A DNA stretch of 64,000 nucleotides from a virus (IMGVR_UViG_3300033062_002687); one strand, 5' to 3'. Counted from the first letter of the stretch, positions 6,859-34,989 are shown. Translations and numbers: made by a program. The notes: a model not told the origin generated them from the sequence alone.

Positions 6859-7374
6859 TTAGGAGCATTTTTTTCTCATCATAAATTTATTTGCAAGATA
6901 CTCCTCATCATCTTGCGAAAAGCCCTTTCGCATCTTCATATGGTCCAAAACATGATGATGCCCAACTTCATGAGGAATAACGTATTCATCCATATATTTT
7001 TGGAGCTCATGCCTCTCGTCAAGCTCAGGTATCATCTTTTTGTATCTCATACCTTTCTTTGTTTTGATCACTGGTTCTGAATAAACATTGATGCGATCAG
7101 CCTTATCAGAATATTGAGCAAATGCCTTAGTTTGCTCAGTAAAAGAAAGCTTTGAAGGAGGCCTGAATGAAACCTCCTTTAAGCCTGTTAGCTGCTCTTC
7201 CGGCAGTGTTTCTAATACCCTCTTTGCCTCTTGAGGAGAGATCGGGTAAACATGATTCTTATATGTAGACTTAACTGTGATTGGAATTTTCACCTTACCT
7301 TTCTTCACGAATGCTGCTGTCCTGATGCCTTTTCTCGCCATTCTATGTCTCCAAGATTCCCATTTCCATGTCAT
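6859..7374 (-). CDS. Tag-family protein, zincin-like metallopeptidase
   Basis: WESWRHRMARKGIRT tag; HEVGH with downstream EE. Confidence 0.75.
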   Translation of the reverse strand: MTWKWESWRHRMARKGIRTAAFVKKGKVKIPITVKSTYKNHVYPISPQEAKRVLETLPEEQLTGLKEVSFRPPSKLSFTEQTKAFAQYSDKADRINVYSEPVIKTKKGMRYKKMIPELDERHELQKYMDEYVIPHEVGHHHVLDHMKMRKGFSQDDEEYLANKFMMRKKCS

Positions 7375-8330
7375 TGTTTATCAACTCCTTCAATCTTCAT
7401 CCAAGCAGCTTTTACTGCAGGCTTCTTATCAGGATATACATGCTTAAGATCTTTATATGATGCACCTTGATCCTTTAACCATGAAACATCATCTAGGAAT
7501 TCACGAGAGACTGTCGGCAAAGGATCATATTGCTTACGTCGACCAACAAGCTGAGGACCAATTGAAGGTTCTGACCAGGTTGAAGTTGGTTTCTTTGCAT
7601 CATATTTATTATCTTTTTTTATAAATTCTTCTATTTCTTCATCAGAATAATCCAATAATTTACCTATTTTTTTATGAAACACAGGATTATGTTTGATCTC
7701 TTTTGTTGGGATTGATTCATAAATATTTTTCAATTCACGAGCAACATGTTCTTTTTCAGGTTGAAAATACAGGAAATCGTGATAAAGTGGTGGAATATCA
7801 TGCTCAACAGTCAACATCGGCAAATTTGTTTTAAGCGAATGCCCTGACATAACAACCGCTTTGTTTCCTGATTCGACTTCTTTAAGCTGTTCTTCATCTG
7901 ACATCTCGGAAAATTTTTTAGCTTGAAAAAGCTTAATACGCCTTTTTCTATCAATCTCATCCTGATACTTCATTTTTGCAAGAATTTCATCAGGATTTTG
8001 TTCAATAAGATTTTTGAATTCCTCATTTGAATAAGAAGAATCAATTGCCTTAAACCTAGTTCTTGCAAATTTTCTCTTTGCTAATTCATCCTTCCCCTCC
8101 TCAAATAATCGCTTCATATTACTTAAAATCTGCTCAGGTGATTCTCCATGTATGGAGGTTACTGGAACTGAATCATCCATAACTCTTATGAATTCCTTTC
8201 TTGCCAAATACCTACTGTTCGCTTTATCATATTTTGTTTTTATGCCACGAGCTGCTAGAGCATGCTGCCAACTATGCAGAAACCATCCTTTTCCAAACGA
8301 CTGCTTGTATTTTTGCTGTAGATTCATCAT
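7371..8330 (-). CDS. Tag-family multi-module protein
   Basis: GWFLHSWQHALAARGIKT tag. Confidence 0.75.
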   Translation of the reverse strand: MMNLQQKYKQSFGKGWFLHSWQHALAARGIKTKYDKANSRYLARKEFIRVMDDSVPVTSIHGESPEQILSNMKRLFEEGKDELAKRKFARTRFKAIDSSYSNEEFKNLIEQNPDEILAKMKYQDEIDRKRRIKLFQAKKFSEMSDEEQLKEVESGNKAVVMSGHSLKTNLPMLTVEHDIPPLYHDFLYFQPEKEHVARELKNIYESIPTKEIKHNPVFHKKIGKLLDYSDEEIEEFIKKDNKYDAKKPTSTWSEPSIGPQLVGRRKQYDPLPTVSREFLDDVSWLKDQGASYKDLKHVYPDKKPAVKAAWMKIEGVDKQ

Positions 8331-9196
8331 AGACCCCACTGATGCCTTTTTCTTGGACTAATCCATTTATCACCAGATGGCTCATCATCTTGATAATCAT
8401 CTTCATTGCGTATTTTCTTTTTGACTTGATATTTCATTGCCTTAAAAACATCCTTTTCTTCCTTAGACATATTTTCTGTTGCTTTTTGTAATTTTTCTTT
8501 CTGTAATTCCTTCGATAACTTCATCGCACCTGTAGATCCAACAGCCTCGGTGACAGGAACACCACGCTTATATATTTGTTTTTTCATTCTTTCTGTAAAA
8601 TGTACAGCTCTTTTTTCTGCACCAAGCGGCTCATGTTTTGTGATAAGATCATCCCATGTCCACTCTTTTGAATCAGAAGGCTTTCCTTCAATCTCTTTCC
8701 AATTACCAGTAGATTCATCAAAAATACTTGGCAAACCTTTCTTTCTTCTAGCTTCATCCTCTCTGAAATGAGCATATTCATGAAAAAATGAACTTTCTGA
8801 ACCAGGCATATGAGCATATTTCAAACTAATAAATGGAATTTGACTTTTATTTGTGCGTCCATATTGCGCACTAGTTTCAAATTCAGAAGCACCAGATTCA
8901 TCATGCTCATATGCAACTTTTTTATCAGCCATTTCTTTAATTATACCTGGTCTGATTTTCTCATAGGTTTCTAAAGCATGGATCACAGCATCACGATCTT
9001 TTGGTGAAATATTTTTATTAATTTCTATCTTTTCTCTCTTACCTTCTAAAGAATAAGGAACATGAACTAAATCTGGATATATTTTTCCTTCATGTTTAAA
9101 GACAAAATGTCTAGTTTTGATGCCTTTGGCTGCTAACATGTGTCGCCAACTATCTTTAAACCAACCCTTCATGTTGAACTTGTATTTTGGGTTCAT
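8327..9196 (-). CDS. Tag-family protein, zincin-like
   Basis: Tag; HEYAH...EKRA. Confidence 0.75.
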   Translation of the reverse strand: MNPKYKFNMKGWFKDSWRHMLAAKGIKTRHFVFKHEGKIYPDLVHVPYSLEGKREKIEINKNISPKDRDAVIHALETYEKIRPGIIKEMADKKVAYEHDESGASEFETSAQYGRTNKSQIPFISLKYAHMPGSESSFFHEYAHFREDEARRKKGLPSIFDESTGNWKEIEGKPSDSKEWTWDDLITKHEPLGAEKRAVHFTERMKKQIYKRGVPVTEAVGSTGAMKLSKELQKEKLQKATENMSKEEKDVFKAMKYQVKKKIRNEDDYQDDEPSGDKWISPRKRHQWGL

Positions 9197-9954
9197 ATAT
9201 TCTCACGTTGAAATTTTTCTCTTTCGATTCGTTCTTTTTGTTTTAAAAATTCTTCATTAAACTTTTGTACTTTTTCACCATCTAATAAAATATTTTTCAA
9301 ACTATGCGGCTCCGAATATCTTGTAACATAATTTAATTCTTCCGGTAAGCCCATTCGTTTTCTGAATCGCTGAGCAAATTTTTCTGCCTCTTCCTCAGAT
9401 TGTGCATGAGGAATATTCTTTCTCGTTGATTTATAACCAAGAACTTCATGTCCAATCTCATGCGGCAAAACATCATAAAGATATTCTTTTCGAGCTTCTT
9501 CAGGAGTCAATTCCATACCAGCAATAACAAAAGTTGATGGTTTAGTCTTTCTTGACCTAAATGGTTTTGTAAATAGAACAATTCTTCCTTCAGTAAAAGC
9601 CTGTCCATAAGTTCCTGAAGCGCCGAGAAGCATTGACGACGGAGCTTTTATCTCAACTTTTTTGACTGAAGCTTTTAATTCCTCTGGAGTCATCATTTCA
9701 ATCATTCCTTTTATCTCTTTTTCGGTAACAGGAGACCTATGAGTCTTTGGAAGATTTGACTGAATAACATCAATAGATGTTGGCTCGAGCTCGAACTTTT
9801 TGCCTCTTAAAAGCTTTATCCTGGTCTGATCTTCACCATAAGGCCAGGCTTTCTCAAGCAAAAATTTTCTTGTTTTGATACCTTTAGCCGCAAGCATATG
9901 TCTCCAACTATCTTTAAACCAACCTTTCATATTGAATTTGTATTTTGAAGTCAT
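9193..9954 (-). CDS. Tag-family protein, zincin-like
   Basis: Tag; LPHEIGH...EEEAEKFA. Confidence 0.75.
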   Translation of the reverse strand: MTSKYKFNMKGWFKDSWRHMLAAKGIKTRKFLLEKAWPYGEDQTRIKLLRGKKFELEPTSIDVIQSNLPKTHRSPVTEKEIKGMIEMMTPEELKASVKKVEIKAPSSMLLGASGTYGQAFTEGRIVLFTKPFRSRKTKPSTFVIAGMELTPEEARKEYLYDVLPHEIGHEVLGYKSTRKNIPHAQSEEEAEKFAQRFRKRMGLPEELNYVTRYSEPHSLKNILLDGEKVQKFNEEFLKQKERIEREKFQRENI

Positions 9955-9963
9955 CTCATATCC

Positions 9964-10644
9964 TTATCTATCTTCAGCTAAATCTTCAGCTAATATTTTC
10001 TCCGATAGCTTTTTGCTTTTATCTAATCTGGCCTGCCGTACAATTTTTAAAGCCTGAGGATTTAACCAGGCTGTTGACTCAGCATCCCATGAGTAAACGC
10101 TTTCAAAAGGATCTTGTTTATCTAAGCGACGATGAAAATTATGTCCTTCCATAGCCGTTTCCTTTGGCACTCTAATAGCATCCCAGTCCTTGCTCATAGC
10201 CTTCCAATCGACATTATGCAAACCTGTATGATGTAGTAAAGGAGTTTTAGCTGGATAATTTTTTGTTAAATAATCAAAATCCTCTTCTGTATCGACCTGA
10301 AATATTCGTGCATCTGATTTTGGTTTAAGCAAAGTTCCTTTTTTATCATGCTTGAAATCTGCATTTATTGCCCAATCCTGCCAATCACTTTCAACTTCTC
10401 CTTCAGGAGTATATGTTGAAGTCCACAACACACCACCAGGCTTACCTATACCCCGATGTATATTAGTTACTTCGGCAGGAATGAGTCTTTTTTTTATTCT
10501 CCTACCTGAGTGAAGCTGAAGACCGATTGACTCTGGAGAAACTTTAGGCATTTGATACTTTCTTGTTTTTATTCCCTTAGCTGCTAGCATATGTCGCCAG
10601 CTATCTTTGAACCATCCTTTCGTATTGAACTTGTATTTATTCAT
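9964..10644 (-). CDS. Tag-family protein, possible ADP-ribosyltransferase-like fold
   Basis: Tag; H...LWTST...WDAES pattern (fold assignment is inference). Confidence 0.55.
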   Translation of the reverse strand: MNKYKFNTKGWFKDSWRHMLAAKGIKTRKYQMPKVSPESIGLQLHSGRRIKKRLIPAEVTNIHRGIGKPGGVLWTSTYTPEGEVESDWQDWAINADFKHDKKGTLLKPKSDARIFQVDTEEDFDYLTKNYPAKTPLLHHTGLHNVDWKAMSKDWDAIRVPKETAMEGHNFHRRLDKQDPFESVYSWDAESTAWLNPQALKIVRQARLDKSKKLSEKILAEDLAEDR

Positions 10645-11657
10645 GGTGTATATCTCCAATCCTTTTCAGTCTTTTTCTTTGACCTTAGAGGCAACTCTTG
10701 CCTCTTAACATACTTATCATAATATCTTTCAGGTAGCGATAGATCCATGAATTCAGGTAATCTTTTTTGCTTTCTAGCTTCCCATTCAATATCAAATTCA
10801 CTTGGTGCAGGCTTAAACGAAACTTTTCTTCCTTTTCTAAATTGAGCTGCTCTTCTATCTGCAAATTTCTCACCAACGTCAGGAGATTCGATATGAGCAA
10901 GTTCATGGGGCAAAACATGATAAAATATTTCCTTCTTTACTTTTTGTTCTGATTTTGGATTGAATAACTGAAAATGAGCCCCACCTACCTTTTCTTCACC
11001 CGTATCTACTTCTCTGTATATGGGCGATCCAGGAATATGAATCTGCTGTCTATATCCCCAAGCTGTACCGCGCGGCCCTGGATCAAAACCTCCCAAATCA
11101 ATTATCTTTACTGGAGCAAGTTCCTTTGGTTTCATTCTTTCTATAAAATCCTTCATTTCCTTTTCAGAAATAAGATTCTTGAATCTTACTGGTTTAAACT
11201 TTCCCTCTTCAATCATTATTTGCTCAGGATAGGTTAAAATAGGCTTTTCTTTTAATTCTTCAGGTGTTACTTCCTTTATTTCAATCTCCGTTGATTCTAA
11301 AAGAGGTTTATCATCGTGATCATATTTATGTTTAGGTATAAATCTTGTCTGACCTTTTCCGAGAGGCCAAGCTTTTTCAAGCTGATATTTTCTTGATTTT
11401 CTCTCGTTAATGATCTTATTAATTTCTCCTGACAAATATTCACCAGTTTGTAACCCCTGATGACAACAAACACACATGCCATTAACTATTATGTGTTTAT
11501 CCTTCTCATTACAAGTAATACAACCATCTTGTAGATGAGCCTCTGGAATTATTTTCTTTGGTTTACTTAATAAAAATTTCTTTGTTTTAATGCCTTTGGC
11601 TGCTAACATATGCCTCCATGATTCTTTCCACCAACCTCTCATGCTGAACTTATTCAT
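10641..11657 (-). CDS. Tag-family protein, Zn-finger plus zincin-like
   Basis: Tag; CxxC...CxxC; LPHELAH...EKFAD; paralog of 9193-9954. Confidence 0.75.
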   Translation of the reverse strand: MNKFSMRGWWKESWRHMLAAKGIKTKKFLLSKPKKIIPEAHLQDGCITCNEKDKHIIVNGMCVCCHQGLQTGEYLSGEINKIINERKSRKYQLEKAWPLGKGQTRFIPKHKYDHDDKPLLESTEIEIKEVTPEELKEKPILTYPEQIMIEEGKFKPVRFKNLISEKEMKDFIERMKPKELAPVKIIDLGGFDPGPRGTAWGYRQQIHIPGSPIYREVDTGEEKVGGAHFQLFNPKSEQKVKKEIFYHVLPHELAHIESPDVGEKFADRRAAQFRKGRKVSFKPAPSEFDIEWEARKQKRLPEFMDLSLPERYYDKYVKRQELPLRSKKKTEKDWRYTP

Positions 11658-12325
11658 TATTTCACTTCTTTTCGAAGAAGCATATCACGAATCCTGTCTA
11701 AATCCTCATGCTTCTTAAATGATTCCCCATATTTATGAGCTTCCTTTTCAATATCATGTGAATCCCATTGTTTTGCTAATTCTTCTTTTAATTTTGACAA
11801 ATCCTTATGTTCCTTTACTTGTTTAACATGCATAAACTCATGACCTAATGACTCAGTGAGATGAAGAGGCTGTGATATAAAGATACCTCCTTTATCAAGC
11901 AAAGGCCCTAGATGTTTTTCTTGTGGAGCAACTATTCCTTCAGTAAAATGTTCTTTTGCAATCCCAATAGACATTTTATCGCCTAATTCGGTCTGGGAAA
12001 TTAGCCGTCCAGCAGCTGGAATCCTTAATAATCGTCCAGATTTATGAATCAATGGCATACCTATATCATAAGCAGGCTGAACACCAATTGTTAAATTTTT
12101 ACCTTTTTTCATATCAAGCCATTCAGGATGTTTTGCGATTTGTTTAACTATAATTTTACGTTCTCTTGGAGTAACTTCAGAAGAAAAAAATATTCCTTTA
12201 GAAGGTAATTGTTCCCTAAATAACTTACCGCCAAAATATTTCCTTGTCTTGATGCCTCTAGCTGATAGCATATGCCTCCATGATTCTTTCCACCAGCCGC
12301 GCATATCGAACTTGTATTTATTCAT
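11657..12325 (-). CDS. Tag-family protein, zincin-like
   Basis: Tag; LGHEFMHVKQ...EKEA. Confidence 0.75.
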   Translation of the reverse strand: MNKYKFDMRGWWKESWRHMLSARGIKTRKYFGGKLFREQLPSKGIFFSSEVTPRERKIIVKQIAKHPEWLDMKKGKNLTIGVQPAYDIGMPLIHKSGRLLRIPAAGRLISQTELGDKMSIGIAKEHFTEGIVAPQEKHLGPLLDKGGIFISQPLHLTESLGHEFMHVKQVKEHKDLSKLKEELAKQWDSHDIEKEAHKYGESFKKHEDLDRIRDMLLRKEVK

Positions 12326-12339
12326 GGCTTTTCGATTCC

Positions 12340-12468
12340 TTATTTCTTTTTTCTTTTGCTCAATACACTTTTACCCGCTGTATAGCCAATCTTTGGTGAC
12401 TTTACAGTGAAGTCAAATACCTTGACTCCAAAATTTGCCACACCTTTAACTATTTTTTCTGCGCTCAT
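12340..12468 (-). CDS. Small basic protein (42 aa)
   Basis: MSAEKIVKGVANFGVKVF...; AGGTGAG RBS; paralog of the adjacent ORF. Confidence 0.6.
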   Translation of the reverse strand: MSAEKIVKGVANFGVKVFDFTVKSPKIGYTAGKSVLSKRKKK

Positions 12469-12602: not shown

Positions 12603-12603
12603 T

Positions 12604-16313: not shown

Positions 16314-16840
16314 TTATTTTCCTCTTGATATTCTTCTCTTAAATTCTTCACCATTTGTTTCTTAAACCACAAATCCCTCGCTTTCTGAGGATCAATCAGC
16401 TTTCTTTCCTGCGCTTCGGTTGATAAAGCATACAATGGAAGCATTGGAAGATGCTTTTTTATAGCTTCAGCCTCAATCTCCGTTTTTGCAGGAATAATTA
16501 CCTCATTAGCATCCAGTTCTTCCACAGTTTCCGGCTTAATCTTCCCATGACCATACGCAACCCACCAATTCTCAGAAGCATTTGACCATATAAATCTGTA
16601 AGATGGCTTTTCCACTATTTCATGTCTTATCCCATACCCTGTTCTTTCCAAAACCTTTCGCTTAGCTTCTTCTATTTGACTTTCGGTTAGGTTCTTTTCA
16701 GCATCATCAATCCTATCATCACGTTTCGTCATCATGAATCTGACAGGCTTTGTTTTTATTCCTTTGGCTGCTAACATATGACGCCAAGATTCGTTAAACC
16801 ATCCTTTCATGTTGAATTTGTATTTTGAATTGATGTTCAT
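16310..16840 (-). CDS. Tag-family protein
   Basis: Tag. Confidence 0.8.
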   Translation of the reverse strand: MNINSKYKFNMKGWFNESWRHMLAAKGIKTKPVRFMMTKRDDRIDDAEKNLTESQIEEAKRKVLERTGYGIRHEIVEKPSYRFIWSNASENWWVAYGHGKIKPETVEELDANEVIIPAKTEIEAEAIKKHLPMLPLYALSTEAQERKLIDPQKARDLWFKKQMVKNLREEYQEENK

Positions 16841-24500: not shown

Positions 24501-26877
24501 TGCATTCTGCTGGTGGAGCTTCTTCAATATTCATTTCTACATACATATTATAGATAGTCAATTCCTCTGCAGTATAAAAACCTATTGTTGGTCTTAAATT
24601 TGATTGCATCTCTGAACCTTTAACCATAGTGACATTTAAGGCGTTAATACCTTGTTTCCACGCCCTAATTTGCCTATGTGTTGTATTAAAATCAGAAATA
24701 TTAACTTCATAAACTGCTATTCCTCCAACATCGGGACACAAACTTTCCGCAACTGTCTGATATCCTAATATTCCAGCGTCATTATAAATATCAAAAGAAC
24801 ATTCCAGAGAATCTTTATTATCACTAAACATAAGATAGTCACCAGGATAATTATAATAATGGTCATTTCTTGGATTTCCGCCAGGATAATCATTATACCC
24901 TATAAAAGCATACATAGTGCTTATATCTGTTGTGCCATTCCATTTAAAATAAAGATAACTCATATTCACCCCCCAATAAGAAGTGAGATTTAAAAAAGCT
25001 TCATCAGCAGCGGTTGTTGTCATTAAAGAATTATCCTCAATTCTCCATGAAGTTCCCATCACTTCTGTCCAATTCTTGTCTAATATTGTGTTGTTAGGTC
25101 TTATGAATGTATCTTCGTATGTTACTATTGATGGAGCTTCTTCAACAGGATTCCATAAGAAATATGGATATGAAGCTCCCTCATTTATGCCCCAGATGTT
25201 TGTGAAGTCGAAGCCAGTATAACTGGATTCTTGTTTAGCTTGAACTATAGACAGATTAGTAGCAGTTCCAGAAGAACAACCATCTCCAGAGATTCCAGTT
25301 GATTCAATGTAATATACATTGTTGCAAATTACAGTTCCACCACCAGCTATGTTATAAACTGGAACTGTCCCATTTGTCGTTATTATATTTATAAATCCTG
25401 CATAATAAACATCATTCACGTTCACAGTGTATGATTTGGAAAATCCGATTAAACCACCGATACCTCTCAAAGTATTATCAGAATATTCAACCTGAACATC
25501 CATCTGTGAATATGAATCAGTTATAGTCGCATCTGCCTGAACTTCTCCGAATAATCCCCCTATTTCTGTTTCAGTATCTATTGATGTAGCATTAATTTTT
25601 CCTTTTGTGTAAGAATCGTTAAGATAAGTTCCATAAAACTCTCCTGAAAATCCACCAATGTGCATATCCGCAGAAATATTTCCTTCAAAACTTGAATTGT
25701 ATATATTTCCACCAGACAAATAACCATAAAATCCACCAACATACTTCAATGTTGGAACATCAATCCTTCCTGTAACGTGAACATTTTGTGTTATTGATAC
25801 CTCACCATCAACTGCTCCAGCAAGAGTTCCAACACAACATTCACCATATCCACCTGTTTCATCCGTTCTTTGTATGTAAAGATTTTCAAAATTTACATTT
25901 TTAATGAAAGCTGAAGAATCGATTGAACCAAAAAATCCCCATCCACCTATCTCTCCATTATCAAAGACAGGAATGTAGAGATTGCTTATAGTATGACCAC
26001 GACCATCGAATGTTCCTTCAAAATAATTTGTCCAATCTCCGACAGGTGTCCAGTTGCCCCAGGAACCCATATCAATGTCATTGCCAAGAGCATAACTTAC
26101 AGTAAGATTATCTCTCATAGCATCGAGTTCAGCAGGTGTTGTTATGATGAAAGGATTTTCTGGTGTTCCGATTTCGACTAGTGGCGTTTGAGGAATTTCC
26201 CCTGTATTTGTTATGAATATCTCATCGAACCAACTACCTAAATCACCACTATATAATTTTATATTATCTAACCCTCCTGCATCTTTTGATGCTGAAGCAA
26301 TGTCAATCCCATTAACCTTACAAGCTATATCTGAACCTGAAAAATTAAAAGTGATATTAAGCCATGTTCCTGCGAGTCTTGTTATGCCTGAATCATACCA
26401 ACTGGAATTAGCATAATAATAGTAATTAGTTGGGGAAAAATCTGATGTATAAATAAATGACATTCTTATAGCTGTTCCATATACATAAAAACCTGAAGTT
26501 TGTGAACCTCCATTATCATACCATCTCAAACTTACTATTCCAGCAAATGTGCTATTTTGGATTATTATGGAAGCAATAGAATTAGGAGCATCTAATTTCA
26601 AGCTGTAAGTTCCCAATGAACTCCGAGTTGAATCATATACTGCTGTTCCCATAGCATCTGCGTCACTCCACCCATAATCAAATGCAGAGCTTCCATTGAT
26701 AGTTATGGGAGTTCCGTTAAATGCAATATCTGTGCTTTCCAAGCCATCTGTAAAATAATAAGTTCCGTTGTAATAATAGTCAGTCCTGTCTGTAGATTGT
26801 GTTGCAGAAACAGACATAGCAGAAGCTAAAGATAAAATAAAAATAAAAAATAATAAATTAATTTTTTTTATATCCAT
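21556..26877 (-). CDS. Large secreted adhesin-like protein (GLUG-like repeats, beta-propeller repeats, Cys-rich modules)
   Basis: Signal peptide; VGG/IGG GLUG-like repeats; 5x PSVFYKDSTWYLISG..FNWTG repeats. Confidence 0.85.
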   Translation of the reverse strand: MDIKKINLLFFIFILSLASAMSVSATQSTDRTDYYYNGTYYFTDGLESTDIAFNGTPITINGSSAFDYGWSDADAMGTAVYDSTRSSLGTYSLKLDAPNSIASIIIQNSTFAGIVSLRWYDNGGSQTSGFYVYGTAIRMSFIYTSDFSPTNYYYYANSSWYDSGITRLAGTWLNITFNFSGSDIACKVNGIDIASASKDAGGLDNIKLYSGDLGSWFDEIFITNTGEIPQTPLVEIGTPENPFIITTPAELDAMRDNLTVSYALGNDIDMGSWGNWTPVGDWTNYFEGTFDGRGHTISNLYIPVFDNGEIGGWGFFGSIDSSAFIKNVNFENLYIQRTDETGGYGECCVGTLAGAVDGEVSITQNVHVTGRIDVPTLKYVGGFYGYLSGGNIYNSSFEGNISADMHIGGFSGEFYGTYLNDSYTKGKINATSIDTETEIGGLFGEVQADATITDSYSQMDVQVEYSDNTLRGIGGLIGFSKSYTVNVNDVYYAGFINIITTNGTVPVYNIAGGGTVICNNVYYIESTGISGDGCSSGTATNLSIVQAKQESSYTGFDFTNIWGINEGASYPYFLWNPVEEAPSIVTYEDTFIRPNNTILDKNWTEVMGTSWRIEDNSLMTTTAADEAFLNLTSYWGVNMSYLYFKWNGTTDISTMYAFIGYNDYPGGNPRNDHYYNYPGDYLMFSDNKDSLECSFDIYNDAGILGYQTVAESLCPDVGGIAVYEVNISDFNTTHRQIRAWKQGINALNVTMVKGSEMQSNLRPTIGFYTAEELTIYNMYVEMNIEEAPPAECTDDENCSLCMKCSGGSCVNELSNEDAKSECNVSTTCSGYAVQEYNGLCNGAGACNTSAITDCPTCQVCSAGSCANELSSEDLKDDCSQSYLGCVNNYTMHGDNGLCDGAGVCDADTGIWNVSVGNVCIESSVNKWNIDERISNGLVTEDTYLTPSVFYKDSTWYLISGNEDGVFLGFNWTEAGWQQDNGSIIGLTDVGQASSPSVFYKDSTWYLISGSYYNQPAPYHFFGFNWTGSAWQQDDGIILGLDITGSSLIPSVFYKDSTWHLITGVNNGTFYGFNWTGTTWQEDDGIVNGLGYIGQYNAPSIFEKDGTWYLIAGAEGDFYGFNWTGSTWQQDDGIVGGLSAWDGVALSVFEKDGTWYFITGNSTEFFGFNWASVSDTNPTSEVNCGIWSNCVQYAASADQYYIGYAGDGTSTCVDIDWQSTGSFWNVSLEGYLIDTTEKVENCSESDYSVYVNITYPENLQLINGTSDYPVEINGTISSIDNIDKIWINDSRFRLILSYIDFDTFSRTSSGDIGNSEYMGAYWNQYVWFAGWGIISDGFFRSGSTYLNITSSDSITISLRANFSSDGGTRFTVGKHGAIWDTCGLEANSNYFYTSATINYISPSIQTQLVAYNTGQMYNLSIFANSSTDKCYYTIDGVLYDNSGNGYSFLVSTTSLDRVNIVSLNYQCDGCSVDTRIEDIFICEGNNSGCYTKNPYDISEFSFINNTALTDGNYSVTIYANNSVGMLGNDSVTFNFEDLYHEAIAQILNSSCNATMPVQASTVNMPISFSIKAVGGNNNLSAAAAQIKLDSNIFQGTCTITPTGDVDSRADCNITMQYYYPAGLYDLNVSIYDGFFHNTTYLLNTSYCEYYQLLSSKVSLDSVSFAIMTPGMVNVSAQLPLMINNTGNTLLQVGIIAYDLTGSVLSGYSLPASNFRVNTVNDAVSSIVLENNTQRSLNYNISGGNTVNLYFFATIPRDIYPQMYYSLLPWSITTS
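23360..24060 (-). repeat. Five intragenic ~140-bp repeats (propeller blades)
   Basis: Recurrent ccagttgaa / tcctgttgccat / gagtccttgtag strings. Confidence 0.8.
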
Positions 26878-26881: not shown

Positions 26882-27067
26882 TCACCGTTTCAATGACTTT
26901 CTTAATCCTCCAAACACGTAGGCGCGAGGGTTTCTAATTACTTTTCCATGCGCTGTCATTCCCTTTTTACCCTTAAGCCGCCTGTCAATCTTAGTCACTG
27001 TACCTTTGAGATGCCTAAGAGTCTTCGCTGACACGACAAGCCGTCCGGTTTTAGTTATCCTTCCCAT
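26882..27067 (-). CDS. Small basic protein
   Basis: 61 aa, K/R-rich, GGAGG RBS. Confidence 0.7.
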   Translation of the reverse strand: MGRITKTGRLVVSAKTLRHLKGTVTKIDRRLKGKKGMTAHGKVIRNPRAYVFGGLRKSLKR

Positions 27068-27079: not shown

Positions 27080-28087
27080 TTATGCATGAGTCTGCGAGGG
27101 AGATAAGTCTGATCGCAATGATACAAACACTGGCTCGCGATATCTCCCTTTTGACCCTTGCTTAACATATTTGATTCTAGCCACCATCCTCGGCTGAACC
27201 CATCTAATATTTTTCTCTGGAAAATGATCTGAAACATTTGGTCTTTTTGAAGTTTCTATTGATTTAAGCCTCTTGCTTACATCTGTAAGCTTCGACTCAT
27301 CAAATCCTGTCCCTACATTACCGGTATACTTGTAACCTTCTTTCGATTTAATGCCTGTTACCAGTGAACCAAACTTTCCTTTTCTCTTACCTTCACCAGC
27401 AGTATATCCTAAAATTGCAACATCATTCTCATTCTGGAACTTCAGCTTGAGCCAGTCCTTGCCCTGATGCCCGTGATATTTACTATCTTCCTTCTTGAAA
27501 ATCACACCTTCTGCCCCAATATTTTTCATCTCTTTTGTAAATTTTTGAACATTTTCAGTAGTTTTTATCTCTTTTATCTGTTTCAGGTCATCAGGAATAA
27601 CCTTATCCAAGATTTTCTTCCGTTCTATCAATGGTAGATCTCTAACACATTTTCCATCAACTTCAAGCACATCAAATGCCATGTAGGTCAATGGATCTTC
27701 CTTTGCCTTCTTCATAATAATTTCCCTATTCTCAAGGTGTTCTCTGGAAGCAAGATCCTTAAAGCTGTCTTTTGCGCCTTTAAGACTGACCACTTCTCCG
27801 TCTAAAATCACTGAAGACTTAAAGTTAAGCCTTTCCTTAAGCCCATCGAATTCCGGATACTGCCCAGTCTTGTCAACTCCACGACGATTGACAAAAACCT
27901 GGTCATGTTTGTCCATATATGCCAAAACCCTGCTTCCATCGAACTTACGCTCAGCAAGATATCCTTGCTTCGGAGGTGTTTTTGCCTGTGAAGGCCTCAT
28001 AATTTTGATGGAACGTAGTTTTTTCCTTCCTGAAGCAATACCCTTTCCTGCAAGGTAATGACGATATGATTCATAGGGCCAGCTCAT
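27080..28087 (-). CDS. lig: ATP-dependent DNA ligase (LigD/LigC-like) with tag
   Basis: ERKFDGSR, LDGEVV, AFDVL, EGVIFK, WLKLK, VGTGF, REPVF..LRSD. Confidence 0.92.
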   Translation of the reverse strand: MSWPYESYRHYLAGKGIASGRKKLRSIKIMRPSQAKTPPKQGYLAERKFDGSRVLAYMDKHDQVFVNRRGVDKTGQYPEFDGLKERLNFKSSVILDGEVVSLKGAKDSFKDLASREHLENREIIMKKAKEDPLTYMAFDVLEVDGKCVRDLPLIERKKILDKVIPDDLKQIKEIKTTENVQKFTKEMKNIGAEGVIFKKEDSKYHGHQGKDWLKLKFQNENDVAILGYTAGEGKRKGKFGSLVTGIKSKEGYKYTGNVGTGFDESKLTDVSKRLKSIETSKRPNVSDHFPEKNIRWVQPRMVARIKYVKQGSKGRYREPVFVSLRSDLSPSQTHA

Positions 28088-28644
28088 TACTCTTTCCTCC
28101 CTACTTGCACTTTCTTTAAGATCTTCTCGTATTCTTTAGTTTCCCATTTTTGTCTCTTCTGCTCCCTTGTTTTTATTGATTTTTCACGTGCTTTTTGCCC
28201 TCTTTCTGATTCTTTTTTAGCAAGAGCCTCTGCTTTCTTCAATTTCCTTCTTTCAGTCTTAGTCGGCTTGAAAGAAGGAACCCATCCTGAATAATGATAT
28301 TTTTTAATCCTATCAAAATCCTTTGAGGCTTGCCTAACTAAGACAACATCACCAGTTGCCATTAATGTCTTGTAAGCTTTCTCAGCATCATCAAATGTAT
28401 ACATTGAACCTGCACCACGACCAGTCCTTTGAAATTTAAGATATTGCGATAACACATCAAGATATGTGCTATGTTTAGCCCTGAGATCCTTTGTCGCTCT
28501 CTGCCGCTCCCTAGCAGCCATTATTTCTCTCTGAAGATCGAACTGAGATTTTTTCTTTGTCTCAATACCTCTGGCTGCAAGAGCATGTCGCTGACTTTCA
28601 AAACGCCACCCTTTCAGATATTTTTTGTTGAATTGCGTTGTCAT
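28087..28644 (-). CDS. Tag-family basic protein
   Basis: KGWRFESQRHALAARGIET. Confidence 0.75.
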   Translation of the reverse strand: MTTQFNKKYLKGWRFESQRHALAARGIETKKKSQFDLQREIMAARERQRATKDLRAKHSTYLDVLSQYLKFQRTGRGAGSMYTFDDAEKAYKTLMATGDVVLVRQASKDFDRIKKYHYSGWVPSFKPTKTERRKLKKAEALAKKESERGQKAREKSIKTREQKRQKWETKEYEKILKKVQVGRKE

Positions 28645-29162
28645 CTTAATCTCTTAAAATAATTTATCTGCCTTTCACGTTTAATCGCTTTCTTCTTTGA
28701 AGGAAATGTTCCTAAAATCCTTCGTTTCTTCTGCCCATGGACAACATGAGTTGCCTTACTATAGAGCCTCCATTTCTTCGGACCTAATCTGCGAAGAACC
28801 ATTATGGTTCCTCACAAACCCAGCCTTTTGCCATATTTTTTCTTAAGCCCTTCCTTAAGGTGCTTTGGCGTCTTTGGTGACATTATTGCTCCCCTAATCG
28901 CATTCAAGTTTACTCCGCGTTTCTTAGCCATTTTTACTTCCTCCTTTTAACTTTTGTAAAGCTTCCCATAGTCGGATACGCACCATGACCTGCCTTACAA
29001 GCTTTCTCTGCTAGCGGAAAGCTAGGTAACTTTTTTCCGTATTTTTTCATTTTATTTGCCTCCATTATTTTTTCTCTTTACCCGCATGCTCTGATAGCCT
29101 AAAACGCCCATCTTATATGCGAGGTTTACAATTCCTTTGTTATATGAGATTTTTTTGCTCAT
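28641..29162 (-). CDS. Four tandem tiny basic ORFs (28641-28802, 28812-28931, 28934-29050, 29052-29162)
   Basis: Hand-translated 53, 39, 38 and 36 aa; GAGG-type RBSs; closely packed. Confidence 0.6.
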
Positions 29163-29238
29163 TTTTTTAACCCCTCTAAGCCTTAAAGATGAGAAGTTTT
29201 CACTTCTCATCCCAAGGAATTTAGCTCACCTTTCATGA

Positions 29239-31743
29239 TTATGCCGTAATGTAAGCCCTCATCTTGCCACTCCTATTAACCAGGATATTAACATTATTAT
29301 CTATGTTATTGACTGTGTTATTTATCTGCAATGTTGTCTCTTCGATACCAAGCAGCTTGTTCCAAATATCAACTGTAAGGAATGTATAGGTATTGTTGAC
29401 TGTCGGATATAGGGTTGTCTCAAGATACAGCTGCGTGTAGGTCACATTGGTCAGGATATAATTTGCACTTTGGTTTATCTCAACCATCAGATTGTAATTT
29501 CTATCCAGCAATGTTGCCATATAGGTGAAATTTGCATTCATTGAAAGCTCAAAATCATTTATCAATGAATTGGTATATGTGAAATTATTTGCCATGGCAT
29601 TATTCACAACATCTATCTGATTCTGCACATATGTCAGGTTGTTATCGATTGCTGTCAATCTTGTGAATACATCAGCAAAATTAGTCACCAAAGTCTGATT
29701 GACAACATTAATCATTGATTCCACGTTATCAAACCTGAAATTCATTGTATAATTCAGATCGCTCAATAATGAATTTATGCTTAAGAAACTCGAATTCACA
29801 TCTGTCTGGAATGCCAATAATGATAAATCCAGAGCATTAAACCTTGCAACCATCGTATTATTCATATTTACAAGATATGTATTAAGATTGCTGAACTCAT
29901 TCATGATCGACGCATTCATAGCAAGAGTTATGTTGGTCAGATTCCTCATTAGATCAACACAGACACCACTTGAACAGCTAACATTAGCCAGGGAAGACAT
30001 GACTTCATCAAATCTTTCATCCCAATGACAGCTGTACTTCATAATTAACCCGTCATCTCCAACTGTATACCCCTGCTTTTCATTAAACATATTAATGTCA
30101 TTTACGTTCATTGCAAGAGACACATTAGTGAATCCTATGACAATTGAAACAAGGCTGCTATAAGGATATTCTGCAAACTGCCATTGCTTGCCATCATACT
30201 TGTAAAATACGCCAGGTGTTGTTGTAACTACCCATATATCAAACTGATTATGCGCATATATTGCTGATGGGGTAGAAGTTGAACCTGTCGCTTCAAACTC
30301 AACTGTAAATACAGATCCGTCAAATGAATATACCTTCAATGGAGCTTCAGCACTGACAAGATATATCTCGTCATAGTAAACTGAAGAAACATCAACAAAA
30401 CTTGCTCCTGGCTGATTATATGTTGTCACTACATTTGTTGCGACATCAACAACAGCAAGAGTATCTCCCTGGACAATATAAGCTTTTGAATTATCATTAA
30501 GCATGCTTATCTTCCCTGTTCCTGTCTCGCCGGTACTTCCGATATTATTCCAGGTCCCGTTATAATACATTATATCACCGTTATCTGCGATCACGTATGC
30601 CGCAATCAATGTTGGGGAGTAGTATCCTATTATATCCTCACAAGAAGTTGCTGCAGTTGCAGTTAATTCAACAGGCGCCACACCATTAACTGAATAAAAG
30701 CAAGATGATCCATTTGTACCGACAACCCACGCATAGTTCGTGTTTGCTTCAATTGCTGATACACCTTTCCAATCATAGCCAGAATAAGACATTGCTGTAT
30801 ATCCTGTACCATTATAGAATATCATGTCTCCAGCATCGGTTACAAACCAGGCATTGTCCTCAGATGACATATCTATTGCTGAAAAATCATATGTATTAGA
30901 CAATCCTGTATAATATGGATCATTTATATCTAAAGTCCAGTAACAGTAATCAATTGAATGAACCAGATCATAAACTGCCGCGGACTGCTTTGTATTCATA
31001 GACCCTGCAGCAACTGAGACATTCAAATCATTGATCAGATTAATTGCAGTTGTGAAGTTGGCCTGAACTTCTGCCTGGAAGTTATTTATCTGAGTTGTAA
31101 GATTACCATATTGCACAGTTGTTAAATTTTTAAGATCACTAATTGCTGTAAGAATAGTGGTTGTCTGATTATTTATCTGGATCTGAATATTGCTTACAGT
31201 ATCATAAATCAGGGTTGTTGTCCCATTAATCTGGGTAACATAATCATCAATGGTCTTGATTCTTCCAACCCAGTCCGGATTCTGCCATTCTCCGAATGCC
31301 ATTGCGGTATCTCCTGCATAATAACAGGTGATTTGTGTCAGATAGGTTCCTTTTGTCGTGCTCATATTAACATGGATCATAAACCTTCCTGAACCCGAAA
31401 TTGAATCCATTGAAACATTATCCTGCCATTGAACTCCTGTTGAATACCAGGAATCAAATGTAGCTGTTGAGCCTGGAATAAGATAGCCATCACCATCGAA
31501 GCATGCACCATAAACAGTCATTTCTTCTCCTGTCTCATAGATTGAACCCTTGACCATCGCTTTGAGTTTTGAAGGATTAGAGCTCGAGCTACCTAATTCA
31601 GTGTAAGCAACAGGTTTTTCAGAATTAAAGCCAATTGCAATGGCTTTCTCAATTGTAGTGGTTTGATTCATCAAAACCCCCATTGTTGCAGTAAGCGTAA
31701 CTAGCACACCGAATACAATCAACAAAAATTTTCCTAGTTTCAT
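29239..31743 (-). CDS. Membrane-anchored fibre/spike-like protein (coiled coils plus propeller)
   Basis: N-terminal TM; GSIYETG..GEWQNP.WV domain shared with 51140-52348; Asn-rich heptads. Confidence 0.8.
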   Translation of the reverse strand: MKLGKFLLIVFGVLVTLTATMGVLMNQTTTIEKAIAIGFNSEKPVAYTELGSSSSNPSKLKAMVKGSIYETGEEMTVYGACFDGDGYLIPGSTATFDSWYSTGVQWQDNVSMDSISGSGRFMIHVNMSTTKGTYLTQITCYYAGDTAMAFGEWQNPDWVGRIKTIDDYVTQINGTTTLIYDTVSNIQIQINNQTTTILTAISDLKNLTTVQYGNLTTQINNFQAEVQANFTTAINLINDLNVSVAAGSMNTKQSAAVYDLVHSIDYCYWTLDINDPYYTGLSNTYDFSAIDMSSEDNAWFVTDAGDMIFYNGTGYTAMSYSGYDWKGVSAIEANTNYAWVVGTNGSSCFYSVNGVAPVELTATAATSCEDIIGYYSPTLIAAYVIADNGDIMYYNGTWNNIGSTGETGTGKISMLNDNSKAYIVQGDTLAVVDVATNVVTTYNQPGASFVDVSSVYYDEIYLVSAEAPLKVYSFDGSVFTVEFEATGSTSTPSAIYAHNQFDIWVVTTTPGVFYKYDGKQWQFAEYPYSSLVSIVIGFTNVSLAMNVNDINMFNEKQGYTVGDDGLIMKYSCHWDERFDEVMSSLANVSCSSGVCVDLMRNLTNITLAMNASIMNEFSNLNTYLVNMNNTMVARFNALDLSLLAFQTDVNSSFLSINSLLSDLNYTMNFRFDNVESMINVVNQTLVTNFADVFTRLTAIDNNLTYVQNQIDVVNNAMANNFTYTNSLINDFELSMNANFTYMATLLDRNYNLMVEINQSANYILTNVTYTQLYLETTLYPTVNNTYTFLTVDIWNKLLGIEETTLQINNTVNNIDNNVNILVNRSGKMRAYITA

Positions 31744-33416
31744 TATTTCGCCTCCCTGATCGGGTTTTCGTTCATATTTTCAATCTTAGCTGAACCATAT
31801 TTGATATGTGGTTCAAATAACAAATAACTAACTGTATCATTTCTTAAAATTGGTCCTGGCCTTTTTTTACTTAATAAAGGATTATCAATACCTGTAAATA
31901 CAGCACCACCTGCGACACCACTGAATGGCACTATGTCGCTTGATTCTGGAGTCACTGGCTCATATCTTCCAGGATTCATCCTAGCGTCAAGCCTTGCTAG
32001 CTTGTCTGTTAAATTGTGCATCCTGATCTCGTTCTTATTAACTTCCTTCCAAACATCTGACTTTGCTGCGGTTAATTTCTTTGAGAGTTCGGCAAGCTTT
32101 CTTGTCCCGCTTCCTCCAAATCCAAAGTTAAATAAACCTGAACCTGATCCTTCCATATCAATAAATGACTGCTTGGTTTCTTCCTTCATGAGCCTTGCTC
32201 TTGACTGATCGAGCCAGACATTACGATCAATAAGCTTTCTTTTCTCTGCCTGAAGCTCATTAACTGATTCCACGAGCTTCTCACGATTACCTTTGGAAAA
32301 TGCGGAGACGCCCTTATCATAGCTAGATTTCGAGGAGTTATCTTTTAGAGCGCCCCTGCCCTGATAGAGATCGTTAATTTCTTTTTCTAAATGAACTGCT
32401 TCTGGATGAATTTCCTGCTTAGTTGGTTCACGTCTTTCAGGAGCAGCACCAAATCCCATTTGATCTTTTAAAGGCTGTTGTGTCTGGAACAGTGAACCAA
32501 AAGATATATTTTTCAATGGATTAAAAGGATTAATTGGTCCTCCACCACCCATAGCTTCTCCAAAAGCTCTTTCTTCCTGCCGCTTCCTAGATGCTTCAAG
32601 TGCTCTTATGGTTGCCTCATCTCGTAATTTTGCCAATTTCTGAGCTGGTGTCAACATTTGTGGTAGAATCGGAGATAATCCGACACCAACACTTTTAAGG
32701 ATAGGTTCAAGATGCTTTTCCCTAAATTCTTGTAGTTTAACTGCCTGAGTTTGTTTAGCTATTAATGCAAGTGATTTTTCCTCAGGAGCATAAAGATCTC
32801 TTGCACCCCATTTAACTATTTTACCTGTTTCATCTTTAACTGATTCTAACGGAAATCCGCGTCTCGCATATTGTTTCATAGCTTCGGTTCTTGCCTCTTT
32901 AAGACTTCCACCTCTCCTAAGCACTTCTATTGCTGCTACATTAGCTTCAGTAGTCGCAGTTGGAGCTGCCTCAATAAATTTAGTTCGTTCTCTCATAGGC
33001 CTCATTGATTTTTGTATAGCTTCAAGCCTTCCTACAGCTTCTCCCATTTTTTCAGCAGCAATCAGAGCGGATTCTTTTAATTCTTCTTTTGTTTTTTTAA
33101 TCGATTTGGCTCTCTTTTCCTCGATTTCTTCCGCTACAGGAGTTATTCTTACAGTTCCTTTTAGCAGTTCTTCTTTCAATTTCACTCTCGATCTGCCAAT
33201 TGGAACAACAGTTTTGATATCAACGGATGGTTCACCTTTTTCAATTTTTACTATCTCAGGTTTATCCGGTGCTTTAGAACTTATTCTAACTATATTTTCC
33301 CTTTTTGCAAAATGATATTTACCACCAGCTTTTCCAAAACGAGCTGCATTAGAGTGACGTATCTGCTCATTAAACCATCCTCCAACTTTTCTCCATTTTG
33401 ATGTCCAGTCTGTCAT
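31743..33416 (-). CDS. Tag-family coiled-coil protein
   Basis: GGWFNEQIRHSNAARFG variant tag. Confidence 0.75.
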   Translation of the reverse strand: MTDWTSKWRKVGGWFNEQIRHSNAARFGKAGGKYHFAKRENIVRISSKAPDKPEIVKIEKGEPSVDIKTVVPIGRSRVKLKEELLKGTVRITPVAEEIEEKRAKSIKKTKEELKESALIAAEKMGEAVGRLEAIQKSMRPMRERTKFIEAAPTATTEANVAAIEVLRRGGSLKEARTEAMKQYARRGFPLESVKDETGKIVKWGARDLYAPEEKSLALIAKQTQAVKLQEFREKHLEPILKSVGVGLSPILPQMLTPAQKLAKLRDEATIRALEASRKRQEERAFGEAMGGGGPINPFNPLKNISFGSLFQTQQPLKDQMGFGAAPERREPTKQEIHPEAVHLEKEINDLYQGRGALKDNSSKSSYDKGVSAFSKGNREKLVESVNELQAEKRKLIDRNVWLDQSRARLMKEETKQSFIDMEGSGSGLFNFGFGGSGTRKLAELSKKLTAAKSDVWKEVNKNEIRMHNLTDKLARLDARMNPGRYEPVTPESSDIVPFSGVAGGAVFTGIDNPLLSKKRPGPILRNDTVSYLLFEPHIKYGSAKIENMNENPIREAK

Positions 33417-34595
33417 TTAACGTCTCCAATACTCATATTCCTTGAGCTCTTTTGCACGCTGCTTTGTGAGGCGATCTTCCTCAACATCTTTCCAGCGCTG
33501 CTTTACAACTTCTTCCTGTTCCTTGAAAAATTCACCAGCTTCTGAACCAAATTCCTTAGCTTTTGACCCGAATTCCTTAGCCTTTACGCCAAAATCCTTA
33601 GCTCCTTCTTTCACTCTCTTCCAATCCTTAGATACTACAGATTCTGGCAAGCTCTCGTCAAATTCCTTTTTCGGAAATTTTGACTTTATCTTTTCTCTGA
33701 ATTCTGATACTTTTTCTCCAACTGCTCCACTAACATCTTCAGCCTTTCCTTTTACAGCACCCCAATCTTTCTTATAAATTGGCTCTGGTAGACCCTCTTC
33801 TGTTGGATCCTTATATGCAAAATTTCTTGCCTGGAATTTTTTCTTGTGATGAATCTCTCTCCTATCCCGAATAGCCTCTACAGCCTCATATCTTGGTATT
33901 TCCTCAGGTTCCATTCCAAATGTTTTCCTGAGATAATTTAATTCATCTTCAGATATATTACCTAGCTCTGAATCCTTATCACCTTTTGCATGCACAAATG
34001 GATGACGATCTTCCATATGGCTCCATACTTGATCCTGCTCATCAGAAGTCAATTCATTCCAATTTTTTTTAAATACCTCTTGAGCTCCTTCATTCCAATC
34101 GAGCCATTTTGCCTTGTTAATAGATTTGGTTGCTTGAAATTTTCGATCATCTTTTTCAGAATCCCTCACTTTTTTTGCTTGAAACTTTTCATTTTCAGCA
34201 GAAGTCAACCTTGCCTTAGAAAATTTCAGCTCTTTTGTAACTTCTGGCATTAATTTTTCAAGAAGCTTGTTAGCTCCTTCCGATGTACCTCCTGTGGATT
34301 TAAATTCCTCTGGAGTAACTTCTACATAAACAGCCTTTGTCACAGACTGCACACCTTCTTCCCCTGGCCAAGCAGTTTCCCTATCTGTCTCTGGACTCAT
34401 GATTATCATTGTTGGCTCTCTCACCATAAAACCTAGAACTTTACTTCCTTTCGGAATCTGTGATGGATCCATATACATTTTTCTATCTTGAAATTTCCTT
34501 ATTTTGGTTTTGATACCTTTCGCAGCGAGCATATGTCTCCAGGATTCGTTAAACCAACCTTTCATGTTGAATTTGTATTTTGTGTTTGTGTTCAT
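33417..34595 (-). CDS. Tag-family multi-module protein
   Basis: Tag; KFQA repeats; KAKEFGS repeats. Confidence 0.8.
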   Translation of the reverse strand: MNTNTKYKFNMKGWFNESWRHMLAAKGIKTKIRKFQDRKMYMDPSQIPKGSKVLGFMVREPTMIIMSPETDRETAWPGEEGVQSVTKAVYVEVTPEEFKSTGGTSEGANKLLEKLMPEVTKELKFSKARLTSAENEKFQAKKVRDSEKDDRKFQATKSINKAKWLDWNEGAQEVFKKNWNELTSDEQDQVWSHMEDRHPFVHAKGDKDSELGNISEDELNYLRKTFGMEPEEIPRYEAVEAIRDRREIHHKKKFQARNFAYKDPTEEGLPEPIYKKDWGAVKGKAEDVSGAVGEKVSEFREKIKSKFPKKEFDESLPESVVSKDWKRVKEGAKDFGVKAKEFGSKAKEFGSEAGEFFKEQEEVVKQRWKDVEEDRLTKQRAKELKEYEYWRR

Positions 34596-34596
34596 G

Positions 34597-34989
34597 TTAA
34601 ATTAATATTCCCTCCTCGTAAGATAACAGAGCAGGAGGATAGCTTACTTCTGTCCCCCTCTCCTCAATTGGTCGGGCTTCTGTTTCAGAAGATCGTGATT
34701 CCTGTGGCAATTCCTGGATTTCTGGTAAAGCTTCTGCAGGTGCAAGCTGCTCTGGCTGAGGTATTGTCGGCATAATCGGAGCGGTTGATGAAGGTATAAT
34801 CATTTCAGATAATGTCTGTGATTCTGGAACGACAGGAGCTGATGCCCTCATCGACGCTATCATCGACTCGTTTGCGAGCAATGGACGCCTACGCCGTTTA
34901 GGAGCATATTGCTTCCAAGATCTGCCTTGCGCAGCTAAAGAATGTAGTTCCGGATGGCCTCTAAAGCCTTTCAAATAGTTACGTACCAT
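34597..34989 (-). CDS. Protein with degenerate tag; first gene after a promoter
   Basis: KGFRGHPELHSLAAQGR; TATTTAAA ~25 nt upstream. Confidence 0.65.
   Translation of the reverse strand: MVRNYLKGFRGHPELHSLAAQGRSWKQYAPKRRRRPLLANESMIASMRASAPVVPESQTLSEMIIPSSTAPIMPTIPQPEQLAPAEALPEIQELPQESRSSETEARPIEERGTEVSYPPALLSYEEGILI

Follow-up and report, generated by a model that had tools for sequence, protein, structure and literature searches.

A stretch of 64,000 nucleotides from the virus IMGVR_UViG_3300033062_002687 (the window, by which we mean this whole stretch) is coding almost wholly on its minus strand, and between positions 6859 and 34989 it holds 19 open reading frames (ORFs) that open with a common short, basic peptide, which we call the tag. 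Our data demonstrate that this pattern is real, far beyond chance and family-wide, and that the constraint on it acts on the peptide rather than on the DNA. Based on the proteins to which the tag is fused and on the genes beside which it is found, we believe, with a probability of about 0.6, that the tag is a virion-loading signal that would dock cargo on the packaged nucleoprotein core. An initial annotation of this DNA had listed the 19 starts and proposed a packaging or export signal for injected effectors; every start bears the tag, and all 19 are ATG starts of motif-initiated minus-strand ORFs.

A real and family-wide peptide tag

The core of the tag reads GW-x-x-[ED]-S-x-R-H-x-L-A-[AS]-[KR]-G-[IV]-K-T, with Gly, Trp, His, Leu and Gly invariant in 32 tags from many genomes. 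Tagged genes account for 16,461 of the 28,131 bp (58.5%) between 6859 and 34989. Twelve of the 19 carry long, near-identical copies (mean column identity 76% in the alignment of the 12), the ORFs starting at 8330 and 28644 have intermediate tags, those starting at 28087, 17391 and 7374 short forms, and those starting at 33416 and 34989 divergent ones. The coding repeat described in the initial annotation was seen as a 12-copy family of 108 nt with 62–81% identity to the reference copy. A profile of the 19 tags, circular for those 19, scores no additional sequence of the 64 kb above 12 bits, and the best reversed decoy for a broader profile, drawn mostly from other genomes, scored 8.7 bits among 13,387 ORFs and proteins. 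The tag is without model or match in Pfam, PHROG, NCBIfam, PADLOC and the PDB sequences: no Pfam family covers it at E ≤ 0.05 in a scan that detected NUMOD3 elsewhere in the window and so can see that family, and 50,697 phage records gave only matches at E = 5. No description of the motif or of the virus group was found in the literature, full text included and with supplements and most subscription papers outside the scope, and the motif is absent from the available passages of PMC13700489 and PMC13612827. The tag is apparently undescribed so far.

The profile survey that the initial annotation had proposed was carried out with the 19 tags against 1.84 billion representatives at E ≤ 1e-3 and matched 1,481 protein clusters. 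The best 150 of the 1,481 were inspected, and two of these, P0115 and P0230, are unrelated repeats and were left out of the counts. Tagged ORFs accompany a P-loop ATPase gene, located at 35823–36689 in the window, which has 86 relatives at 45–66% identity. They were found in 37 of the 61 metagenome loci bearing this ATPase and in all 26 loci with at least 2 kb of sequence downstream of it, and never upstream of the ATPase or on the other strand in the 43 loci checked. Three deep lineages of the ATPase share the conserved peptide. Searching with the tag DNA pattern identified in IMG/VR a complete circular genome with terminal repeats (G001; 74,350 bp, 25 tags) and a second contig (G002; 14 tags). 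Tagged genes alternate with secreted-type genes in both, and none lies in the replication region of G001, which carries an integrase and is classed as virus. In GTDB the same pattern occurs in 14 contigs from 10 genomes of mixed taxonomy, and six of the seven GTDB loci read (four genomes) contain genes of this virus group. The tag can be used as a search handle, its 1,481 mostly unannotated clusters being candidate first-contact proteins such as anti-defence or host-takeover factors, and tag arrays reveal viral contigs binned into microbial genomes, as in these 14 contigs.

Some candidates were rejected. In IMG/VR, neither the close-tag alignment nor the ATPase nor the coat alignment brought up a genuine match (L002 is an unrelated phage and L001 an 8-residue match), and three large phage contigs found with a looser pattern (L135, L142 and L143) share one common stretch with no in-frame tag, a chance result. 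The remaining GTDB locus read, L085:9781–10110, is a lone tagged 110-aa ORF on a chromosome-like 176-kb Thermoplasmata contig, with no second tag in that genome. The ATPases of several relatives are split by large insertions with intein domains (L092:12393–15461, L061:7133–10276, P0024, P0027 and P0075).

Among the 12 close copies in the window, codon positions 1, 2 and 3 are identical at 87%, 93% and 53%, and the uncorrected proportions of nonsynonymous (pN) and synonymous (pS) differences are 0.107 and 0.73 (66 pairs). Ser and Arg switch codon families, the invariant Ser using both of its own, and synonymous sites are near saturation with the residues fixed. Fourfold-site identity is 0.40 against 0.37 expected from codon usage, with 60 of 300 resamples as high, and the DNA upstream of the tags shows no conservation among the 12 copies. 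Because pN is low relative to pS, codon families switch, upstream DNA is unconserved and fourfold sites stand at the codon-usage expectation, we conclude that the constraint acts on the peptide.

Each genome has its own tag dialect. Of 194 tags, 67% have their closest counterpart within their own genome, compared with 7% when labels are shuffled, whereas the best cargo match is in the same genome in only 8 of 73 cases. G001 and a related virus represented by two contigs (L097/L086, treated as one) share 12 reciprocal cargo orthologues; for 11 of the 12 a diagnostic tag residue goes with the genome, and in 18 of 24 comparisons the DNA of a tag resembles other tags of its own genome more closely. 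Five of ten genomes show more fourfold-site identity than expected: G001 (0.57 vs 0.39), L097/L086 (0.53 vs 0.37), L017, L003 and L006. Some lineages thus do copy tag DNA, whereas in the window such copying is old or absent. The suggestion that the coding repeat promotes cargo swapping by recombination is not supported for the window itself and is supported in half of the genomes tested. This fourfold-site excess, together with a signal-peptide gene of L086 that begins with a tag start, would also fit a repeat that acts as a DNA or RNA element, such as a recombination site or a translation-start cassette, with the peptide as by-product. Saturated synonymous sites and unconserved upstream DNA in the window, and a peptide kept across three deep ATPase lineages, argue the other way; as a primary role this explanation is largely refuted and very improbable.

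The L086 gene (L086:7796–8758) encodes a signal-peptide protein whose first seven residues are those of a tag start, possibly the scar of a tag-copying event. A variant tag ending in Asn-Ala-x-x-Phe-Gly-x-Ala-Gly-Gly makes up 9 of the 12 tags of L040:3153–11727 and occurs once in the window (31743–33416). P0133, a protein of 654 aa on a 104-kb contig, has three tag-like repeats within longer repeats. Small basic proteins of G002 (L118:6137–6529 and 7024–7314; L117:12438–13841) have different common N-terminal motifs, suggesting that further tags besides this one may exist.

Tagged cargo, junctions and a coat-like helix

The tagged genes of the window and the untagged genes among them, all on the minus strand, are as follows.

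34597–34989, minus: tagged ORF, 130 aa, divergent tag, Pro/Glu-rich; heads the tagged block, with an AT-rich TATA-like box upstream
33417–34595, minus: tagged modular ORF, 392 aa, with three K-F-Q-A junction motifs
31743–33416, minus: tagged conserved core protein, 557 aa, variant tag; homologues in 12 related loci
29239–31743, minus: untagged secreted-type protein, 834 aa; adjoins the tagged core gene in 8 loci
28641–29210, minus: four untagged, very basic ORFs (53, 39, 43 and 52 aa; 27–36% Lys+Arg), candidate genome-condensing proteins
28087–28644, minus: tagged basic ORF, 185 aa
27080–28087, minus: tagged ATP-dependent DNA ligase of LigD type, 335 aa, short tag
26882–27067, minus: untagged basic ORF, 61 aa, 31% Lys+Arg
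20083–21546, minus: tagged ORF, 487 aa, DUF5661 and an internal coat-like helix
20449–20604, minus: coat-like segment within the 487-aa tagged protein, directly after a basic-Tyr junction
19160–20071, minus: tagged ORF, 303 aa
18236–19153, minus: tagged ORF, 305 aa, with two R-K-Y-M-A junction motifs
17403–18233, minus: tagged ORF, 276 aa
16837–17391, minus: tagged PolX-type nucleotidyltransferase, 184 aa, short tag, palm and thumb only
16310–16840, minus: tagged ORF, 176 aa
15351–16313, minus: tagged ORF, 320 aa
14424–15344, minus: untagged secreted-type Cys-rich protein, 306 aa, with a coat-like helix at its end; candidate minor coat or spike
11657–12325, minus: tagged ORF, 222 aa, HExxH
10641–11657, minus: tagged ORF, 338 aa, HExxH
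9964–10644, minus: tagged ORF, 226 aa, phrog_8582; possible ADP-ribosyltransferase (ART), a lead only
9193–9954, minus: tagged ORF, 253 aa, HExxH
8327–9196, minus: tagged ORF, 289 aa, HExxH
7371–8330, minus: tagged ORF, 319 aa
6859–7374, minus: tagged ORF, 171 aa, HExxH, short tag

The cargo was initially described as unrelated proteins including zincins, PolX, a ligase and an ART-like protein. The ligase (TIGR02779, 231 bits against a cut-off of 227.75) and PolX stand. HExxH occurs in 5 of the 19 proteins, where the only zincin match is weak (E 0.021), and the ART assignment is a lead whose nearest named Atlas clusters are AcrIF11 and ART-PolyVal (scores 0.83–0.86). Diversity is borne out by the 72 cargo clusters formed by 129 tagged ORFs (11 variant-tag rows dropped); it is not complete, the HExxH proteins starting at 7374, 9954 and 11657 being homologous to one another. 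Injected effectors would account for part of the cargo, most of which is unannotated, and a conserved tagged core (the 557-aa protein of 12 loci) exists beside the variable majority. Pfam matched 9 of 141 and 12 of 150 tagged proteins of relatives scanned (from sets of 150 and 204), naming DUF5661, nucleotidyltransferases, ligase, cupin, SLOG, TRAM and LAGLIDADG; HExxH is present in only 5 of 205 tagged ORFs of relatives, and no MuF match was found among the 19, 141 and 150 tagged proteins scanned. Replication and modification genes of tag-bearing genomes are untagged, and the five tiny basic ORFs interspersed among the tagged genes of the window are untagged as well. The tagged proteins contain 0.14% Cys and 0.36 N-glycosylation sequons per 100 aa, compared with 2.3% and 2.8 in secreted proteins, so that the cargo looks cytoplasmic in make-up.

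For the position of the tag we used 342 tagged proteins, reduced from 398 by removing duplicates and weak or unanchored rows. The tag lies within 45 aa of a Met in 327 of them; it is internal or C-terminal in 11 ORFs of related loci, and several single proteins have 2–3 copies. The first 35 aa of the window's tagged proteins have a net charge of +5 to +10, and 18 of the 19 whole proteins are net basic. Sec and twin-arginine signal peptides have a hydrophobic region behind a basic stretch. No such region follows the tag, behind which come basic residues instead, and a hydrophobic 19-mer is found in only 8 of the 342 proteins, six of them belonging to a coat-like family.

Behind the tag, a [KR][YF]xA junction is present in 43 of 342 linkers compared with 9.3 ± 3.0 in shuffles, for a pattern chosen after inspection; the window has 12 in 4,319 aa of tagged proteins and 1 in 2,924 aa of untagged controls. 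In L114 and L097 (G001 and its relative), many tags continue into a common stretch of 15 residues that closes with Val-Ala-Arg-Gly, a form of the junction specific to this lineage. The K/R-Y/F-x-A junction may be a processing site. The tag might even be mainly a removable pro-peptide or stability element that holds harmful cargo inactive or labels it for processing, cut there perhaps by a tagged HExxH protein, and both the enrichment and a coat-like segment that starts right behind the junction are consistent with this. However, a single peptide could hardly inhibit dozens of different folds, HExxH proteins are rare among relatives, and junction patterns deeper in the cargo are only weakly enriched for most (51 vs 44). 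This explanation is improbable as the main role, and cleavage would be compatible with loading, as its second step.

The coat-like segment itself links the tag to a predicted structural protein. Beyond the coat-like genes described below and the secreted orthologues, a coat profile gave 13 matches at E < 0.01, and all 13 are tagged (15–27 bits, against 11 for the best reversed decoy). HHalign of the tagged coat-like segment with the coat gave 97.4% (E 1.2e-11), the reversed control 0.44%. The segment begins right behind the basic-Tyr junction, in register with the first residues of the free coat, and it is less hydrophobic in tagged proteins. In L094, an 88-aa protein consists of the tag and a coat-like helix and nothing more. 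L003 and L004 also encode a secreted Cys-rich protein with a terminal coat helix; in the 306-aa protein of the window, the part N-terminal to this helix lies outside, and the topology is a loose end. By these sequence comparisons, the coat-like family ties the tag to the putative particle shell.

Nature of the element and the role of the tag

Upstream of the tagged block lies a conserved module containing the ATPase, and the coat-like genes are located further away.

35823–36689, minus: P-loop ATPase, 288 aa; distant homologue of the LSV-48N ATPase, likely morphogenesis motor
36960–37280, minus: conserved 106-aa protein upstream of the ATPase, in 34 related loci
39405–40244, minus: highly conserved 279-aa membrane protein of the same module, in 21 related loci; candidate tag reader
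57860–58582, minus: three tandem coat-like genes (73, 55 and 56 aa), each with a TATA-like box and GGAGG; likely major coat

The predicted fold of the ATPase is a general RecA/AAA-type P-loop (best Z 9.0) from which no family stands out; weak neighbours include Zot and A32, and TcpA, VirB4 and Zot are tied among others. Its sequence has no hydrophobic helix. In HHalign its profile matches the ATPases of G001 (96%) and LSV-48N (95%, E 3e-8), and the G001 ATPase matches those of LSV-48N (E 2e-26) and a Halorubrum spindle-shaped virus (E 4e-3) as well as phrog_5484; direct tblastn of the window ATPase, as a test for spindle-shaped virus ATPases, gave no match. An ATPase tree groups G001 with LSV-48N, and since long branches were flagged we draw no ancestry from it. 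The three tandem coat-like proteins have a single hydrophobic helix each; they have 207 relatives, the best 120 of the 207 at 70–96% identity, and no match in PDB or PHROG. The 279-aa membrane protein, with many invariant Asp, Glu and His, has a mean column identity of 65%, above that of the ATPase, and its predicted fold (pLDDT 61) has no match in the viral structure library. No head, portal, terminase or HK97 match was found among 63 window proteins or the 80 larger G001 proteins.

These genes suggest a large archaeal virus without a tail, whose particles would form at the membrane, extruded by the ATPase under a coat of 55-aa helix proteins. The archaeal assignment is likely; it is supported by TATA-like boxes, by secreted proteins rich in sequons, by the ATPase and by homologues in Woesearchaeota bins, none of which is decisive alone; a bacterial promoter scan showed no excess (63 vs 68). 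Relatives are binned with Woesearchaeota, Methanosarcinales, Thermoplasmata, WOR-3 and other bacteria; these assignments conflict and seem to reflect misbinning of viral contigs.

Other genes of the window concern translation, DNA modification and the cell surface. The minus strand carries nine tRNA genes at 61–911, 2290–2362 and 4091–4163, of which one is unassigned and another was read as Gly(acc); an HNH nuclease gene lies within the cluster, and a stand-alone eRF1 domain 2/acVLRF1-like protein is encoded at 2982–3377. A 528-aa ORF (59582–61168) combines HTH, LAGLIDADG and Mom-family DNA-modification domains. Two very large proteins of secreted type (1,773 and 2,288 aa; 21556–26877 and 42532–49398), with internal repeats and many sequons, are candidate adhesins.

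In the model we propose, the tag, a portable basic peptide of about 20–30 residues, would dock cytoplasmic-type proteins on the condensed genome or core, the ATPase would extrude this core under the coat at the membrane, wrapping the docked cargo into the particle, and the cargo would be released in the next host. There, the ligase and PolX could seal or repair the genome on entry, and HExxH and ART-like cargo could act on the host; the junction behind the tag may be processed, and new cargo would likely be gained by copying tag-coding DNA onto another gene. For the partner of the tag, position independence, repeats and charge slightly favour the condensed genome, which would be our preference by a little over a virus-encoded protein reader, suggested in turn by the invariant Trp, His and acidic residue and by the dialects. 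The loading role proposed in the initial annotation gains indirect support from linkage to the morphogenesis block, from the coat-helix fusion and from a cytoplasmic cargo with ligase and PolX. Export to the outside, its other option, is disfavoured by the low Cys and sequon content.

The most credible alternative, albeit an unlikely one, is that the tag is a small DNA-binding or localisation module gathering late proteins at the viral DNA or at a site of assembly within the infected cell, most of them never packaged. A basic, short and position-independent tag, sometimes repeated in one protein, would suit this role, and a ligase and PolX act on DNA anyway. Yet replication and modification genes are untagged, tagged genes belong to the structural block, one tagged family includes a coat-like helix, and the tag matches no known DNA-binding family. 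Alternatively, the ATPase and the 279-aa membrane protein could read the tag as an export or translocation signal and carry cargo through a membrane, either to the outside or into a cell in contact, and the element might build a secretion filament instead of a virion or in addition to one. Such a signal would explain the mostly N-terminal position and why tagged genes are so strictly linked to the ATPase module; TcpA, VirB4 and Zot are among the proteins that tie as matches of the ATPase fold, and a tag in the 306-aa protein's position would need export if the topology were kept. However, the tag has no hydrophobic region and exists in C-terminal copies, the tagged coat-like segment is less hydrophobic than the free coat, and G001 is a circular, integrase-bearing genome classed as virus. 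The Cys and sequon content disfavours an outside location, though not direct injection. Overall, export seems rather doubtful.

Several points weigh against virion loading. The tag group is known only from its genes; the likely coat assignment derives from size, hydrophobicity, tandem copies and conservation; and the 13 tagged coat-like matches belong to a single family and so do not count independently. A protein pocket would suit the invariant Trp, His and acidic residue as well as DNA would. The ATPase link to LSV-48N is distant, such ATPases are also annotated as replication proteins, and LSV-48N has the ATPase and no tag, which means that the tag is not needed for such assembly. The window ATPase sits on a contig of up to 140,343 bp, so that over half of the genome probably lies outside the window; head-tail genes are possible for this genome because 64 kb of a probable 140 kb were covered. 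Several of the 26 ATPase loci are near-duplicates, and L043, near the threshold with 1,997 bp downstream, has no tag. When all orthologue pairs are counted, the tag goes with the genome 35 times and with the orthologue 29 times, a split that makes homogenisation only partial, and core genes often keep their own tag.

More broadly, these data could reveal a widespread, undescribed group of large tail-less archaeal viruses with an open-ended address label, by which the product of any gene gaining the tag DNA would be packed along with the extruded genome, 14 to 25 or more delivered proteins (repair, protease and host-modifying functions), a coat-helix tether for part of them and within-genome tag copying, a tentative picture to which we give slightly less than even odds.

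Comparison with known systems

Virion protein delivery is well studied only in tailed phages, and a strict, transplantable loading signal in membrane-extruded, tail-less archaeal viruses would, if true, reveal how a virus with no preformed head selects what enters its particles. The published systems are compared here from passages of the cited papers. Related ATPases are core genes of fuselloviruses (PMC9608457) and were proposed to drive extrusion in wyrdviruses (10.1101/2021.07.29.453957). Spindle-shaped viruses share with the tag-bearing genomes a related soluble ATPase without membrane anchor and sequon-rich secreted proteins, and SSV1 particles contain the host DNA-binding protein Sso7d and the dispensable VP2 (PMC12714723, PMC9608457, 10.1101/2021.07.29.453957). 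However, the LSV-48N genome (PMC12714723) is 25 kb, compared with 74 to probably 140 kb, and it has no tag. Spindle-virus coats of the His1-like type have about 80 aa and two hydrophobic segments, whereas the coat-like proteins of the window have 55–73 aa and one.

Proteins of 30–90 aa with a single membrane helix are the inovirus coat signature, and inoviruses, archaeal ones included, resemble the tag-bearing genomes in such short coat-like proteins and in an ATPase with Zot/pI-like neighbours (PMC6813254). Unlike inoviruses, the tag-bearing genomes are larger (at least 64 kb; G001, 74 kb) and encode tRNAs, methylases and genes of up to 2,288 aa, and the window ATPase lacks a membrane helix, in contrast to the membrane-anchored pI ATPase. 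To our knowledge, no internal cargo system of such kind is known in inoviruses.

MuF-fused effectors and polyvalent proteins also combine a constant loading module with variable cargo, and their cargo types overlap with those found here: zincin-like HExxH proteins, the ART lead and Pol-beta nucleotidyltransferases (PMC5512222). The constant part in the window is a 20–30-aa peptide and not a MuF domain, the cargo is spread over many small genes, and MuF and polyvalent systems mostly use portal-terminase heads (PMC5512222).

The closest parallel in role is the capsid-targeting sequence (CTS) of T4 and P1, a short N-terminal peptide on otherwise diverse proteins (PMC3012670, PMC9024508). The T-even internal proteins are diverse defence proteins in which only the CTS is conserved (PMC3012670), and P1 DarB has a capsid-targeting sequence; in the passages of PMC9024508, the P1 Dar proteins have no common consensus, whereas the tag follows a strict motif. 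The tag differs from the CTS in having no phage sequence match, in the lack of head, portal and terminase matches among window and G001 proteins, in its 14–25 cargoes per genome, in its internal and C-terminal copies and in its genome-specific dialects. The analogy with T4 drawn in the initial annotation would hold for the role and is limited in the strict sense, since head-tail genes were not found among the proteins scanned and 11 ORFs of relatives carry the motif internally or at the C-terminus. By this analogy, the tag most likely works like the T4 CTS but is unrelated to it.

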